The translations under genes and the position numbers were made by a program. Under the pieces are notes generated by a model. It was not told the origin of the DNA. It made no database searches and worked only from the letters and a program-made list of their open reading frames with translations. A stretch of 64,000 bases of DNA. It comes from Halarcobacter sp. Lineage in GTDB: Bacteria; Campylobacterota; Campylobacteria; Campylobacterales; Arcobacteraceae. Position 1 is the stretch's first letter, and the number at the start of each line of letters is the position of its first letter. The stretch is from positions 1,824,001-1,888,000 of the forward strand of contig OY781089.1 in NCBI GenBank assembly GCA_963676565.1. The letters run 5' to 3'. This document shows, in pieces, positions 44,123-50,876 of the stretch.

Positions 44123-44758
44123 CTAGTTTTGAGTATTTCTTATTTGTAATAAAGAAAAACCTAAACCTACAAATATTCCACCTGTAATTTTATGAAACCA
44201 AGACATAAAGTTTTGTTTTTTAAACAATCCTCTTGCTGACTGTGCTATAAAACCATAAAGGCAAAGACTAAAAAAAGAAAAAAACATAAATAACCCAGTC
44301 ATAATAAAAAACTGAGGTGTAATGTCACTTTTTAGATTTAGAAACTGTGGGAAAAGTGCTATAAAAAATATTATAGGTTTTGGATTTGTAACAGCTAAAA
44401 AGAAAGATTCTAAAAAAGTTTTTTTCAAGCTTTTTTCTATTTTTCTATCTTCATCATTTTTTAGCTTCAAAGAAGATGCACTTCTAAACTGTTTTATTCC
44501 TAGATAAATCAAATATCCTGCTCCAACTATTTTTACTATCATAAATAAAGTTGCAGAAGTAAGTAAAATAATTCCTAAACCAGAAATAGAAATAGAAGAT
44601 AAGATAAACAAACCTAATATATTTGCAAAAGAAGATGTAGCAACTGTACGCATATCATGTACTAATCCATTTGTAATAGCTAAAAAAACAGCAGGACCAG
44701 GACTAATTACATAAAAGAAAGCAACAACTGAATATAAAAAAAGAATATGTAAATCCAT
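44123..44758 (-). CDS. LysE/RhtB-family exporter
   Basis: ISPGPAV, GAGYLIYLG, TNPKPIIFF. Confidence 0.9.
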   Translation of the reverse strand: MDLHILFLYSVVAFFYVISPGPAVFLAITNGLVHDMRTVATSSFANILGLFILSSISISGLGIILLTSATLFMIVKIVGAGYLIYLGIKQFRSASSLKLKNDEDRKIEKSLKKTFLESFFLAVTNPKPIIFFIALFPQFLNLKSDITPQFFIMTGLFMFFSFFSLCLYGFIAQSARGLFKKQNFMSWFHKITGGIFVGLGFSLLQIRNTQN

Positions 44759-44857: not shown

Positions 44858-45451
44858 TTAACTAAATATTAACCAAATAGCAGTTAAGCATAACATTAAA
44901 CCAAATATTTTGTTTTGTAATTTTTTTATATTGGTGTTCATTACTAATAAAATCAATGCTCTACCGGCATATATCCAAATAAAATTACATAACATTGTTA
45001 ATATTGCTAACATTAAAGTAAGAATTAAAATCTTATCTAAACTATCTTTTTCTACTGAATAAAATTGAGTAAACATTATTGTTGGAATTAGTAAATATTT
45101 TGCATTAAAAAACTCTACTACTACACCTTCTTTAAAACTAAGAGGTTTTATTGCTTCTGTTTGTAAAGTAGATTGTTTAAAAAATCTAAAAGCCAAATAA
45201 AATAAAAATAAAACACCAATATATTTAAATACATCAATAATAGAGGGAAATTTTGAAATTATAAAACCAAGTCCAAAACCTATAGCTAAAGTTTGTAAAA
45301 GACAAATTAAATTTGTACCTAGCCAAAAAGGAAGACTAGCTTTTACTCCAAAGGAACTACCTGAAGCAGCAAATAAAATATTCGCGGGACCAGGACTTAT
45401 AGCTAGAGGAACAAATATTAATAACCATTGAATGATTTCTTCAGAACTCAT
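44858..45451 (-). CDS. LysE-family exporter
   Basis: ISPGPANI, FNAK, about 6 TM. Confidence 0.88.
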   Translation of the reverse strand: MSSEEIIQWLLIFVPLAISPGPANILFAASGSSFGVKASLPFWLGTNLICLLQTLAIGFGLGFIISKFPSIIDVFKYIGVLFLFYLAFRFFKQSTLQTEAIKPLSFKEGVVVEFFNAKYLLIPTIMFTQFYSVEKDSLDKILILTLMLAILTMLCNFIWIYAGRALILLVMNTNIKKLQNKIFGLMLCLTAIWLIFS

Positions 45452-46663: not shown

Positions 46664-47086
46664 ATGTATTTTATAGCAATACTCGCAATTTTTACATTAA
46701 GTATAATGGGAATATTCCATTTTTATTGGGTTATTGGTGGAAAAGTTGGATTAGATAAAGCAGTACCAGCAAAAGATGGAAAACTATTATTGAAACCTGG
46801 TAAACCATTGACTTTTCTTGTTGGAGTTGTTTTAATTTTTTTTGCATATATTGCATATGCTTTACAATTTTATGATTTGACACTACATGAAAATAGAAAC
46901 TTTTATTTATATAGCGGAATTTTCTTATCTATAATTTTTATATTAAGGGCAATTGGTGAGTTCAATGTTATTGGATTTTCTAAAAAAATAAAAGATACTG
47001 AATTTGCAAAGTATGATACAAAATACTTTTCACCATTGTGTTTATTATTAGGTATTGTTTTTGCAGTATTAACATACAATGTATAA
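46664..47086 (+). CDS. Membrane protein (DUF3995-like)
   Basis: HFYWVIGG, RAIGEF, DTKYFSPLCL. Confidence 0.78.
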   Translation: MYFIAILAIFTLSIMGIFHFYWVIGGKVGLDKAVPAKDGKLLLKPGKPLTFLVGVVLIFFAYIAYALQFYDLTLHENRNFYLYSGIFLSIIFILRAIGEFNVIGFSKKIKDTEFAKYDTKYFSPLCLLLGIVFAVLTYNV

Positions 47087-47155
47087 CTAATCATTTAGAT
47101 TATAAATTTAATCCTAAATAAGCTAAAATTATGTACGAATTAAAAAGGCACTGAC

Positions 47156-47173
47156 ATGAATACAATATTCTAA
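47156..47173 (+). CDS. Putative leader peptide MNTIF
   Basis: AAAAGG RBS then ATG AAT ACA ATA TTC TAA, upstream of ABC-F. Confidence 0.55.
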   Translation: MNTIF

Positions 47174-47176
47174 AAT

Positions 47177-47235
47177 ACAAGGAAATTCAAACAATCTACA
47201 TCCTTGTCATTTTAATCTACATTAGTAGTCAAGGA
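47177..47235 (+). promoter_or_regulatory. Putative translational attenuator
   Basis: TCCTTGT (47201) can pair with ACAAGGA (47177) or with SD-containing CAAGGA (47230). Confidence 0.55.
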
Positions 47236-47243
47236 ATATACTC

Positions 47244-48731
47244 ATGCCACAATTAATAATAAAAAACTTACATTATAAATACAAAAATTCAAGCTTAGCT
47301 ATTTTTGAAAATTTAAATTTAGATTTTCAAGAAGGATGGAGTTGTGTTGTTGGTTCAAATGGTTCAGGGAAAAGTACACTTCTAAAACTGATTTCAAAAG
47401 AGATTAAATATGAAAATGGAACAATTAAAGGAAATGACCTAACACATTATTGTCCTCAAAATACAGAATACCAACCAAAAAATCTTGAAGATTTTATGCT
47501 AACATTCAATAGTAAATCTTTTAAAATAAGAGAGATGTTAGATATAAAAGATTATTGGATTTATCAATGGGATAATTTATCTCATGGGGAGAGAAAAAGA
47601 TTACAACTTGCCCTTGCACTTTTTGAAGAGCCTGATATTTTACTTGTAGATGAGCCTACAAATCATTTAGATGGAAAAAGTAAAAAAATTCTATTGAACG
47701 CACTTAAAAGTTTTAAAGGTATTGGAATATTAGTAAGTCATGATAGAGAAATATTGGATAATTTATCTCAATCTACAATAATATTAAAAAATAAAAATAT
47801 CATTACATTTAAAACTTCATTTTCAAAAGCTATGATTGAATATAACAAAAATATAGAGTTTCTAGAAAAAACTCAAACAAAACAAAATACTGAATTAAAG
47901 AAACTTAAAAAATCAATACATTTACAAAGGGAAAAAGTTAGTCAATCAAAAAAGAGATTTTCAAAGAAAGGTATAGATAAAAATGATAATGATAGTAAAA
48001 ATAAAATTAATTTAGCTAAATTAACTGGTAAAGATAAAAATGATGGACAAATAATTACAAAGTTACAATCAAAACAAAAGCAACTTTTATCAAATGCAAT
48101 AATGACAGATAAAACATATAAATTAGGAATAGAGTTTAACTCTATTAAATCTAAAAATATTTTTCCAATCCTTATAAAAAACAATATATTAAAGTTATCA
48201 GAAACTAAAAAACTAGCATATCCAACTTTTTCAATAAATGAATATGATAAAATTGGAATTATTGGAGAAAATGGTTCTGGGAAAAGTAGTTTTTTCAATA
48301 ATATGTTGAATACAATAGATTTAAAAGATGAATATTTATATATTCCACAAGAGATTACAAATGAAGAGAGTAAAAAATTTTTTGATGAAATAAATGGTTT
48401 GTCTAATGATAAAAAAGGCGAAATATATACAATTATAAGAAAACTATCATCCGACCCAATCAAACTACAAGATAGTTTTTTACCAAGTCCTGGAGAGATT
48501 AGAAAATTGATGATAGCAAAAGGACTTTTAGAAAATCCATCATTGATAATTCTTGATGAACCAACTAATCATATGGATTTAGATTCTATAATATCACTAG
48601 AATTAGCTTTAAAAGAATATGATGGAACAATGATTATAATTAGTCATGATAAAACTTTCCTAGATACTATTGTAAATAATATTTGGGAGCTAAGAAAAGA
48701 GAGTGAGTATTTGTTTGTGATTGTAGATTAA
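47244..48731 (+). CDS. ABC-F family ATPase, possible ribosomal protection protein
   Basis: Two NBDs (GSNGSGKS/LSHGE/DEPTNHLD and GENGSGKS/PSPGE/DEPTNHMD), long basic linker, no TM. Confidence 0.88.
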   Translation: MPQLIIKNLHYKYKNSSLAIFENLNLDFQEGWSCVVGSNGSGKSTLLKLISKEIKYENGTIKGNDLTHYCPQNTEYQPKNLEDFMLTFNSKSFKIREMLDIKDYWIYQWDNLSHGERKRLQLALALFEEPDILLVDEPTNHLDGKSKKILLNALKSFKGIGILVSHDREILDNLSQSTIILKNKNIITFKTSFSKAMIEYNKNIEFLEKTQTKQNTELKKLKKSIHLQREKVSQSKKRFSKKGIDKNDNDSKNKINLAKLTGKDKNDGQIITKLQSKQKQLLSNAIMTDKTYKLGIEFNSIKSKNIFPILIKNNILKLSETKKLAYPTFSINEYDKIGIIGENGSGKSSFFNNMLNTIDLKDEYLYIPQEITNEESKKFFDEINGLSNDKKGEIYTIIRKLSSDPIKLQDSFLPSPGEIRKLMIAKGLLENPSLIILDEPTNHMDLDSIISLELALKEYDGTMIIISHDKTFLDTIVNNIWELRKESEYLFVIVD

Positions 48732-48799: not shown

Positions 48800-49417
48800 A
48801 TGATATCTTACGAGTTTTTATTAACTTCATTAGTTGTTGTTTTAATTCCTGGTACAGGAGTTTTATATACTATTGCTACAGGATTATTCTCTGGTAAACG
48901 TGCTAGCTTTTTTGCAGCATTGGGATGCACTTTTGGTATTGTTCCTGCTTTATTAGCAAGTAGTTTAGGCCTTGCTGCTATTTTTCATACTAGTGCAGTT
49001 GCTTTTCAAGTTGTTAAATATCTTGGGGTGGCTTATTTACTTTATTTAGCATGGCAAATGTGGAATTCATCATCTGCTTTAAGTCTTTCTGAAAAAAATT
49101 CAAAAACTAACTATTTAAACATTGTTATCAAAGGTTTTATGCTAAATATTTTAAATCCTAAATTGTCTATTTTCTTTTTAGCTTTTCTTCCTCAATTTAT
49201 TCCTGCTAATGCCCCAAGTGCATTAAATAGTATATTTTTACTTGGGGCTGTATTTATGCTTATGACATTTGTTGTATTTGTTATATATGGCTTTTTATCA
49301 GGCTTATTTAGTGCATATATTCTAAAATCTGAGAAACTTAGTGTTTTTATTCAAAAGTTTTTTGCTACAAGTTTCGCTGCACTTGGCTTAAAATTGGCAT
49401 TTAGTGAACGAGTATAA
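48800..49417 (+). CDS. LysE-family exporter
   Basis: IPGTGVLY, NILNPKLSIFFLAFLPQF. Confidence 0.9.
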   Translation: MISYEFLLTSLVVVLIPGTGVLYTIATGLFSGKRASFFAALGCTFGIVPALLASSLGLAAIFHTSAVAFQVVKYLGVAYLLYLAWQMWNSSSALSLSEKNSKTNYLNIVIKGFMLNILNPKLSIFFLAFLPQFIPANAPSALNSIFLLGAVFMLMTFVVFVIYGFLSGLFSAYILKSEKLSVFIQKFFATSFAALGLKLAFSERV

Positions 49418-49452: not shown

Positions 49453-50250
49453 ATAAATACTACATACAAAAACATAGAACTGCCCTTTTTAGAATTAACT
49501 TTTAATACAGATATAAATGGTTGTCCAAAAAGTCATATGCATGATAAGCTAACTATGGTAGCACTAAAAAATGGTAATATTAAATTATATTTAAAAGAAA
49601 ATGAGCTAATTTTACAAAAAAATAGTATTGCCATAATAAATCCATATCAAATTCACTCAGCTTCTAAAATGAATAAAAATAGTGATGGGCTTTATGCTTT
49701 ATATTTAGATAAAAACTGGATTGAAAAACTTCAATATGATTTATTTAAAATAAATAGCTTTATCCCTTTTTCTTCAAATATAATAGATGATGAAAAAACT
49801 TATGATGAGTTTATTTTCTTATGTGAAAATCTTTTTTTAGATGACTTTTGTATAAAAAAAGAGGAACAAATCATACAATTTATTTCAAAACAAATAATTA
49901 AAAACTGTAATCAATCATTAATTCAAACAAAAAATATATTAGCATGTGATATTAAAAGTTATATTGAGCAAAATATACATCTAAATCAAAGTTTAGAAGA
50001 GATTTCAAAGCAGTTTTTGATAAGTCCTTTTCATCTAATAAGAATATTCAAACAAGAGTTAGATTTAACTCCTTATCAATATATTTTAAATCATAAAGTA
50101 AATTTAGCAAAAGAGTTGTTATCAAAAAATATGAGTATATCAGAAGTGGCACTAAGTGTCGGTTTTAATGATCAAAGCCATTTATACAAATACTTTAAAC
50201 AAACATTTTCTATTACACCTAAAGAGTATCAAGATAGTTTAATAAAATAA
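49453..50250 (+). CDS. AraC-family regulator with non-canonical or mutated ATA start
   Basis: C-terminal HTH (SPFHLIRIFK, GFNDQSH, TPKEY); frame open upstream of ATG 49537 to ATA 49453 behind TAAGG. Confidence 0.8.
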   Translation: MNTTYKNIELPFLELTFNTDINGCPKSHMHDKLTMVALKNGNIKLYLKENELILQKNSIAIINPYQIHSASKMNKNSDGLYALYLDKNWIEKLQYDLFKINSFIPFSSNIIDDEKTYDEFIFLCENLFLDDFCIKKEEQIIQFISKQIIKNCNQSLIQTKNILACDIKSYIEQNIHLNQSLEEISKQFLISPFHLIRIFKQELDLTPYQYILNHKVNLAKELLSKNMSISEVALSVGFNDQSHLYKYFKQTFSITPKEYQDSLIK

Positions 50251-50333: not shown

Positions 50334-50876
50334 ATGACAAAAGCACTAATTGTAATAGACTTGCAAAATGACTATTTTTGCGGTGGGAAAATGGAACTTC
50401 AAAATATAGATGAAGCTTTACTACAAACTAACAAACTAATAAAATATGCAAGAGAAGAAAACTATAAAATCTATTTTGTACAACACTTTGCTACAAAAGA
50501 TGATGCAACATTTTTTGTACCAGATACCCATGGAGTTGACTTAAATAAAAATTTAGATATTCAAGATGATATGATTATCGAAAAAAACTACCCAAATAGT
50601 TTTAGAGATACTAAGCTCAAAGAAGAATTAGACAAAGAAAATATAAACGAATTAATCATTTGTGGAGCTATGACTCATATGTGTATCGATACAACTGTAC
50701 GAGCAGGTTTTGATTTGGGATACAAAATCACTGTAGCTAATGATGCTTGTGCTACAAGAGATTTACTGTTTAAAGAAAAGACTATTAAAGCTCAAGAGGT
50801 GCATTATAGTTTTATGAGTGCATTAGCAAGTGTTTTCTGTGAAGTTAAAGAGACTGAACAAATAATAAATATATAA
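50334..50876 (+). CDS. Isochorismatase-family cysteine hydrolase
   Basis: ALIVIDLQNDYF, KNYPNSF, GAMTHMCIDTT. Confidence 0.92.
   Translation: MTKALIVIDLQNDYFCGGKMELQNIDEALLQTNKLIKYAREENYKIYFVQHFATKDDATFFVPDTHGVDLNKNLDIQDDMIIEKNYPNSFRDTKLKEELDKENINELIICGAMTHMCIDTTVRAGFDLGYKITVANDACATRDLLFKEKTIKAQEVHYSFMSALASVFCEVKETEQIINI

Follow-up and report, generated by a model that had tools for sequence, protein, structure and literature searches.

A short upstream reading frame and mutually exclusive RNA pairings in the leader of an accessory Halarcobacter ABC-F gene: a candidate ribosome-sensing attenuator in Campylobacterota

An accessory ABC-F ATPase gene of Halarcobacter sp. (Campylobacterota; Arcobacteraceae) was found to be preceded by a compact leader in which a five-codon upstream open reading frame (uORF) is followed by a decoy Shine-Dalgarno (SD) sequence, an anti-SD and the SD of the gene itself. 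The gene lies in a stretch of 64,000 nucleotides (GenBank assembly GCA_963676565.1, contig OY781089.1, positions 1,824,001 to 1,888,000 of the forward strand), hereafter the window, in whose numbering all positions are given. We establish here the anatomy and conservation of this leader, the mutually exclusive pairings within it, and the architecture and accessory distribution of the gene it precedes. With somewhat better than even confidence, we propose that the ABC-F gene is controlled by a miniature translational attenuator of the erm/cat type, which would sense a ribosome held by a drug and answer with a ribosome-protection factor. Most likely, the system joins the known class of uORF-attenuated ABC-F genes of the antibiotic resistance (ARE) type, here in Campylobacterota and with a compact leader that acts on translation only.

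The original prediction, made from the letters of the window, had listed a -10 hexamer, a ribosome-binding site, a uORF, three complementary segments and an ABC-F open reading frame, and each of these was found in place. All elements of the leader, and the gene, lie on the forward strand. An A-rich SD (AAAAAGG, 47142..47148), matching an AAAGG(A/C) motif in relatives, precedes the uORF MNTIF*, which has five codons and a stop and runs from its ATG at 47156 to its TAA at 47173 (47156..47173). Segment 1, the decoy SD (TAAAATACAAGGA, 47171..47183), takes in the uORF stop at its 5' end and carries ACAAGGA at 47177-47183. Segment 2, the anti-SD (TCCTTGT C ATTTTA, 47201..47214, with TCCTTGT at 47201-47207), has as its partner either segment 1 or segment 3, the SD of the ABC-F gene (CAAGGA, 47230..47235). 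About 90 nt separate the uORF ATG from the ATG of the ABC-F gene, which encodes 495 amino acids (P0001, 47244..48731). In the minimum free energy (MFE) fold of the window's leader, 47171-47183 paired with 47201-47214 in a stem that starts at the uORF stop codon and is longer than that of the original prediction, and a long-range helix joined the uORF start region (5' arm, GGCA.UGA, 47147..47154) to a 3' arm, TCATGCC (47242..47248), spanning the ABC-F start codon. RNA from 47135 to 47260 folded at -19.1 kcal/mol, compared to -10.8 +/- 2.8 kcal/mol for 200 shuffles (z -3.0; three shuffles were equally stable). No terminator-like sites were found between 46900 and 47400, which points to control at the level of translation, and the hairpin of segments 2 and 3 has two to three G-C pairs in the window and lacks a U tract. 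A search of Rfam returned three chance-level matches only at the leader (E 2.7-9.6), none of them near its gathering score.

In the mechanism we propose, the uORF would be strongly initiated and, after five codons, would end just before a copy of the SD that acts as a decoy, and the anti-SD would have two possible partners, this decoy and the real SD in front of the ABC-F gene. During normal translation of the uORF, a ribosome at its last codons or stop would cover the decoy, leaving the anti-SD to close the real SD and keeping ABC-F synthesis low. A ribosome held at the uORF start or its first codons would have its front edge short of the decoy, in which case decoy and anti-SD would close on each other and the SD would stay open. 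Ribosomes would be held there by drugs that bind the peptidyl transferase centre, such as lincosamides, pleuromutilins and streptogramin A, and in the window's lineage the parked ribosome would also melt the helix that ties up the ABC-F start codon. The ABC-F protein made in this way would bind the ribosomal E site and use its long linker to dislodge the drug, in the manner of ARE ABC-Fs; ribosomes freed in this way would then complete the uORF and the gene would be turned down again. Both the inducing drug class and the resistance function are inferred here.

Homologues of the window's ABC-F were identified by protein search in 35 of 184 genomes of the family, spread over 11 of its 22 genera. 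Within its own genus, six of the 24 other genomes encoded a homologue (E<=1e-60) and a seventh had a broken copy, compared to 23 of 24 genomes of the genus for a 579-aa ABC-F paralogue. The window ABC-F is an accessory gene. Its homologues fell into a clade A, 69-79% identical to the query and chiefly found in other genera, and a clade B, 48-54% identical to the query, which takes in every homologue of the window's own genus. The original prediction had counted a lack of conservation of the uORF and the pairing among the findings that would refute it, and it passed this test. When 34 homologous loci were read upstream of the gene, of which three ended at a contig edge, the uORF, decoy, anti-SD and SD were kept in 20 (the window, L091 and 18 clade-B loci), and the proteins of these loci are 48-77% identical to the query. 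Once a pattern scan was added, all 20 of the 20 clade-B genomes were found to have the leader, and a metagenome search for clade-A leaders returned one contig only (L238), carrying a third clade-A leader with uORF MNITF*. Leader and coding sequence are conserved to a similar extent (70 vs 71% identity between clades; 88 vs 82% for L001-L091), and DNA upstream of the leader drops to a background identity of 62-64%. Since flanking genes differ at every locus compared, leader and gene move as one module. The window gene is closer to its homologues in other genera (69-79%) than to own-genus copies (48-53%), and both clades occur in the family. The distribution suggests horizontal exchange of the gene together with its leader.

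Damaged copies of the module were also found. In G084 (L222, G084:C6), an intact leader with uORF MNILF* stands before an ABC-F reading frame of ~168 aa that matches query residues 1-143 only and ends soon after the Walker B motif; this collapsed copy may be the product of an internal deletion. The leader is kept before an ABC-F fragment with stop codons in G002 (L233/L009, G002:C7), and the ABC-F copy of G186 (L103, G186:C6) has two in-frame TGA codons. Among plasmid records, none exceeded 60% identity to the query, and the top named match was Lsa(E), at 28.4% over 96% of the query.

The pattern scan looked for CAAGG / CCTTG / CAAGGA at the observed spacings across the 184 family genomes, with the pattern reversed as a control and counts made by hand. 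The three-segment pattern occurred at 42 places and the reversed control at 64, so the bare pattern is no rarer than chance, and SD-like and anti-SD-like words are frequent in AT-rich DNA. Both observations would fit an explanation by chance complementarity, or by a plain stabilizing hairpin with no regulatory role. However, at 24 of the 42 places the gene immediately downstream is a homologue of the window ABC-F, and all 24 patterns follow a uORF of 4-5 codons that has its own SD and a stop 2-5 nt before the C of the segment-1 CAAGG core. What exceeds chance is position and conservation, rather than the bare pattern. As the leader is conserved like the coding sequence while its flanks are not, and as the frame, SD and stop of the uORF are kept in 20 of 20 leaders, we find chance or mere stabilization hardly credible.

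The SD, ATG, 4-5 codons and stop of the uORF were retained in all 20 leaders, with an AAAGG(A/C) SD before the uORF ATG (spacing ~7-9 nt, read by eye from alignments) and a stop ending 2-5 nt before the decoy CAAGG core in each. The uORF is presumably translated. Its predicted peptides were MNTLL in five leaders, MNTLF and MNSLL in three each and MNTSI in two; MNTSL, MNTLY, MNILL, MNTL, MRIIV, MNIKF and the window's MNTIF were each seen once. Asn occupied codon 2 in 19 of the 20 uORFs, with AAT and AAC both used, and the uORF of L105, MRIIV*, was accompanied by unchanged RNA segments. A sensor of amino-acid supply, in which an empty A site at the conserved Asn codon (or at the Thr or Leu codons) would switch the gene on in starvation, could draw on this Asn, as a hungry codon 2 would place the ribosome exactly at the ON position. 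Yet the uORF offers a single Asn codon, unlike the runs found in classical amino-acid attenuators, and the regulated gene encodes a ribosome-binding ATPase, neither a biosynthetic nor a transport function. Together with the L105 leader, which keeps its RNA segments around MRIIV*, this makes an amino-acid sensor very improbable.

Pairs were counted with an anchor-based script, as the MAFFT leader alignment had segment 1 of L001, L091 and L005 out of register. Segments 1 and 2 form 10 consecutive pairs in all 18 clade-B leaders; across the leaders, this helix shows one two-sided change, from T-A to A-T (L001, L091 and L005), and an A-to-G substitution by which pairing is retained as G.U (eight loci). 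Segments 3 and 2 form 6-9 bp, with 6 in the window, 7-9 in 17 of the 18 clade-B leaders and 6 in L005. The CAAGG core of segment 1 was unvarying in all 20 leaders, as was ATCCTTG of segment 2 in the alignment. Leaders were then folded under ribosome masks, with the start mask defined as a footprint of -15 to +15 on the start codon and the stop mask placed on a ribosome at the last sense codon, its A site over the stop. Under the stop mask, all 20 leaders formed the helix of anti-SD and ABC-F SD. Under the start mask, the hairpin of decoy and anti-SD was restored in 20 of 20; the SD core was wholly unpaired in 10 of these and had minor local pairs in the others, none with the anti-SD. These constrained folds bear out the earlier claim that the middle segment can pair with only one partner at a time.

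The same folds also upheld the predicted direction of the switch, in which a ribosome at the uORF stop means OFF and one at the uORF start means ON, and two further elements of the leaders point the same way. In eight clade-B leaders, all of one sub-clade, the 3' half of the uORF (UUUACUCU) serves as a fourth segment, which pairs with the decoy (AGGGUAAA). Without a ribosome, the RNA of these leaders favours an OFF state of two hairpins over ON by 5.5-6.4 kcal/mol, and ON would require a ribosome held at the first codons, where it masks the uORF and leaves the decoy free. In the other 10 clade-B leaders and two scored clade-A leaders, ON and OFF were near iso-energetic (-3.3 to +0.9 kcal/mol), and control would depend on ribosome traffic. 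The second element is the start-region helix of the three clade-A leaders, which lack a fourth segment; its duplex energy in the window was -8.2 kcal/mol, compared to -3.9 +/- 1.9 kcal/mol for shuffles. Values for L091 and L238 were -11.4 and -8.4 kcal/mol, with shuffles at about -3.8 +/- 1.8 kcal/mol, giving z of -2.3 to -4.4 over the three clade-A leaders; no such helix was found in 11 clade-B leaders tested. A ribosome parked at the uORF start would melt this helix, and both elements indicate that the start-held ribosome corresponds to ON.

This direction bears on a further alternative, in which the ribosome would stall towards the end of the uORF or on its stop codon under a context-specific inhibitor of elongation or termination, with the switch reversed or acting via unmodelled structures. 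The distance from stop to decoy (2-5 nt to the CAAGG core) is better kept than that from start to decoy, and the four-codon uORF of L005 brings the decoy 3 nt closer to the start. Stalling by phenicols and oxazolidinones follows a penultimate-residue rule, and Thr or Ser at codon 3 in 16 of the 20 leaders would fit it. Nevertheless, a ribosome on the last codons paired the anti-SD with the SD in 20 of 20 folds, so that a stall there would shut the gene off, which is unlikely for a protective factor, and the fourth segment and start-region helix make sense only if a start-held ribosome means ON. We therefore regard a late stall as improbable.

The ABC-F protein has two ABC_tran (PF00005) domains, two Walker A motifs (G-x4-GK[ST]) and two intact Walker B motifs (DEPTNH). 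An AF2 model (mean pLDDT 86.4) showed two nucleotide-binding domains (NBDs) and no membrane helices, with helices at residues 193-238, 249-260 and 263-283 between the NBDs. These residues make up an inter-NBD helical hairpin (residues 193-283, 47820..48092), the putative antibiotic resistance determinant (ARD) linker. From H-loop 1 to the second Walker A, the protein spans 176 residues, compared to 176 in MsrE, 175 in MsrA and 172 in VgaA and LsaE. The same distance is 152, 143 and 143 residues in the Uup-like, YbiT-like and 579-aa ABC-Fs of the same genome, making the window linker 24-33 residues longer than those of its own-genome paralogues, as the original prediction of an extended inter-NBD linker had held (176 vs 143-152). 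NBD1 lacks an arm insertion (128 residues vs 176-177) and the C-terminal extension is absent (29 residues). Top matches in Foldseek were VmlR2 (TM 0.81), LsaA (0.80/0.80), VgaL, VgaA-LC and PoxtA, with EttA, Uup, YbiT and YheS below them, and the closest PDB chains by sequence were MsrE and VmlR. The ARE-like architecture of the window ABC-F is thereby confirmed. In a quick IQ-TREE phylogeny of 54 rows, from which L008 and L025 were left out as broken, the window gene was placed in a clade of 35 rows (support 100, stem 1.06), which does not include Uup, YbiT or the 579-aa paralogue. This clade also holds members from Sulfurimonas, Treponema-like spirochaetes, Verrucomicrobiota, Planctomycetota, Lentisphaerota, Aminicenantes, Fermentibacterota and Thermotogota.

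Protein and distribution together bear on whether antibiotics need be involved at all. Under homeostatic autoregulation, the ABC-F would aid the first peptide bonds and the uORF would serve it as a test substrate: with too little of the factor, ribosomes would linger at the uORF start and the gene would be ON, and with plenty of it they would reach the stop and the gene would be OFF. The same RNA logic fits this proposal, and the conserved uORF peptide, with Asn2 in 19 of 20, could mark an intrinsically slow start context. It also accords with a protein that scores below all ARE cut-offs and has eleven close homologues without a leader, and housekeeping ABC-Fs acting at initiation are known (EttA structures are among the fold matches). 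On the other hand, the gene is accessory (35 of 184 genomes) and the three other ABC-Fs of the genome appear to form the core set. In architecture and linker length the protein matches resistance factors rather than the housekeeping paralogues, and its nearest folds are proteins of resistance to pleuromutilins, lincosamides and streptogramin A (PLSA). In addition, broken or collapsed copies (G002, G084 and G186) are as expected for a dispensable gene. We consider autoregulation unlikely, though it deserves more weight than the other alternatives.

Several points weigh against a drug-sensing attenuator. In the MFE fold of the window's leader the ABC-F SD is unpaired, so that the OFF state is weak, and ON and OFF differ by +0.9 kcal/mol and are thus near iso-energetic. 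With near iso-energetic states and a free SD, repression in the window would rest on ribosome traffic and the 7-bp helix. The OFF state envisaged in the original prediction did form under the stop mask, but with the SD free in the unconstrained fold it is weaker than was implied, and the models suggest that the window's own switch is probably leaky. The fourth segment is confined to one lineage, and the start-region helix is known from three sequences only. Covariation is thin, as all pairs besides the one two-sided change and the one G.U change are invariant; most pairs never vary, and the argument for pairing rests on conservation. The conserved Thr3 would, by the rule for phenicols and oxazolidinones, set a stalled ribosome on the decoy, which means OFF. 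Eleven of the 34 loci, all of clade A and including the closest homologue (79% identity), lack the leader, so the gene does not depend on it. In the tree, the fork at which the 35-row clade joins Vga/Msr and LsaE is unresolved (SH-aLRT 81). Finally, a check against hidden Markov models of ABC-F subfamilies, which the original prediction had called for, did not favour it, as the protein fell below every NCBIfam ARE cut-off (Msr 206/680, Vga 180/725 and Lsa 177/750 bits). In order of score, the models were NF000355 (298 bits, cut-off 380), Msr (206), Vga (180), EttA (178) and Lsa (177), with all scores far below cut-off, and NF000355 itself is not ARE-specific, matching all 14 control genomes, eight of them over the cut-off. 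NF000355 was discarded as an ARE marker because the Uup-like (390), YbiT-like (419) and 579-aa (364) ABC-Fs all outscore the window protein.

ARE ABC-F leaders, as described in the available sections of two papers (PMC10201436, PMC9226507), contain uORFs of 3-4 codons (MIN, MRI, MK[L/Q] and MAGN) at which initiation stalls under PLSA drugs, and they combine transcription termination with sequestration of the SD. In the same sections, ARE ABC-Fs and stalling-sensor leaders are described essentially from Gram-positive bacteria. Leaders of this PLSA group are those of vmlR (MIN), cplR (MRI), vmlR2 (MK[L/Q]), lsaA (MAGN) and lmo0919/vgaL. On the descriptions in those sections, the leader studied here resembles them in its very short uORF with an SD of its own, in its alternative structures, in the hairpin that sequesters the SD and in the ON signal proposed for it, a ribosome held at initiation, and the proteins share a fold (nearest VmlR2/LsaA) and a linker length (that of Vga/Lsa/Msr). 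PLSA ARE leaders are described there as 200+ nt long with an intrinsic terminator, whereas the window leader is ~90 nt long, terminator-free and purely translational. Further differences are a uORF of 4-5 codons whose 3' end sets a second, repressive ribosome position, hosts that are diderm Campylobacterota, and identities of 25-28% to named proteins.

The ermC and cat-86 attenuators work through mutually exclusive pairings with the SD in the last segment, and the ermC leader peptide has 19 residues. Window-type leaders resemble them in their exclusive pairings and in the placing of the SD. The eight four-segment leaders have the erm layout, with two hairpins at rest and the middle pair formed once a ribosome masks the first segment. 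Unlike ermC, the leader peptide of the window has 5 residues rather than 19 and no recognizable macrolide arrest motif, and unlike both ermC and cat-86, 12 of the 20 leaders, the window's among them, consist of three segments and lack a stable OFF ground state.

Genes of this type may already have been counted among ABC-F families. In the available part of Murina et al. 2019 (PMC6723617), an ARE1 ABCF is listed as the fourth ABCF in two of six Arcobacter genomes (A. butzleri RM4018 and A. lanthierii AF1430), the other four having Uup, YbiT and DAF1 only. The genome studied here is alike in having a Uup-like, a YbiT-like and a core 579-aa ABC-F together with an accessory one. From that listing, which was matched without sequences, we infer that the window-type gene is the ARE1 of Arcobacter. 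Two points speak against this mapping: Sulfurimonas gotlandica GD1 is listed in that part without ARE1 (three ABCFs) yet encodes a 51% homologue, and the clade stands apart from Vga/Msr in our tree (stem 1.06). The window ABC-F does show the variable presence within genera that the available part of the same paper (PMC6723617) uses as its criterion for ARE.

Tva(A) and Tva(B) of Brachyspira, according to the available part of PMC6018095, concern pleuromutilin susceptibility, and the ABC-F described there is chromosomal, ~505 aa long and <23% identical to Gram-positive ARE groups. Like Tva, the window gene is a chromosomal ABC-F in a diderm, and its subfamily has spirochaete (Treponema-like) members. 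Tva(A) may be related to this subfamily. A search with the subfamily alignment for Tva gave generic ABC-Fs, and a Treponema-like query listed only relatives of at least 68% identity. Full-text searches of the literature turned up neither this leader nor a native ARE-like ABC-F of Arcobacteraceae; the portions of Arcobacter papers returned mention acquired optrA and msrD only.

Upstream of the uORF lies the hexamer TAAAAT (47124..47129), proposed in the original prediction as a -10 element. The hexamer is present, but a sigma-70 scan did not include it among flagged sites. In several homologous leaders, -10-like hexamers (TACAAT, TATACT and TATAAT) stand 5' of the uORF ATG, at ~26-28 nt in L001, L003 and L108 and at 37 nt in L104, as read by eye. 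Three raw-read RNA runs gave 0 reads. A public metatranscriptome, held as contigs only, included pieces 90-95% similar to the locus, one of which spanned 46925-47246, taking in the entire leader together with the end of the gene before it; such contigs carry no start, strand or level. The gene directly upstream of the window leader encodes a DUF3995 protein. A role for the hairpin as the terminator of this gene was rejected, because it has no U tract and the leader tracks the ABC-F gene while upstream genes vary.

Three LysE-family exporters lie within 5.3 kb around the ABC-F gene, followed by an AraC-type regulator and an isochorismatase-family gene; this set occupies 44123-44758 (-), 44858-45451 (-), 48800-49417 (+), 49537-50250 (+) and 50334-50876 (+). 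In clade B, neighbours at L104, L002 and L005 included GNAT acetyltransferases, an AAA_33 / zeta-toxin-like kinase (two loci), a Cass2/GyrI-like effector-binding protein and a glyoxalase/bleomycin-resistance-fold protein. By gene content, the clade-B neighbourhood looks like one of small-molecule defence. The pattern scan additionally matched another conserved element of ~74 nt, starting CAAGGTGTGAGGAAG, in seven family genomes (L208, at G041:C1:2494512-2494585 on the minus strand, and also G049, G057, G063, G070, G083 and G188). No Rfam family matched this element at gathering score, and it may be an uncatalogued structured RNA or repeat.

Distant members of the 35-row clade also had mini-ORFs upstream that were preceded by an SD under a lenient criterion, and these included two conserved pairs. 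In Fermentibacterota/Aegiribacteria (L020 and L022), the uORFs MIILS* and MIISF* lie 56-57 nt before the ABC-F ATG at 1486. The uORF of this type is itself the anti-SD, with its AUG paired with the main AUG (-22.8 and -25.8 kcal/mol), and the structure opens under any ribosome mask. Two Treponema-like loci have the uORFs MRL* and MIL* within long 5' hairpins, 180 nt upstream of 1519 in L023 and 144 nt upstream of 1489 in L026. These findings suggest that the subfamily as a whole is marked by stalling-sensor leaders. A broader view, which we hold tentatively and at somewhat less than even confidence, is that these genes form an unrecognized, diderm-wide ABC-F subfamily of intrinsic, inducible ribosome-protection factors, reaching across Campylobacterota, Spirochaetota, Verrucomicrobiota, Planctomycetota, Lentisphaerota, Aminicenantes, Fermentibacterota and Thermotogota. 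Its mini-uORF sensors would have been built lineage by lineage; inside a single bacterial family, a shared core of uORF and anti-SD would have gained three OFF modes (a fourth segment, a start-region helix, or ribosome traffic alone), and many genomes would have lost the leader completely.

A terminator-free leader of ~90 nt, with output set by ribosome position alone, would suit studies of ribosome stalling. Such genes are currently annotated as 'ATP-binding cassette domain-containing protein', and the NCBIfam ARE subfamily models miss them. If our interpretation is true, Arcobacteraceae, and possibly many more diderms, carry native inducible ribosome-protection genes, which would bear on how the resistome is read in environmental and food-chain Campylobacterota.

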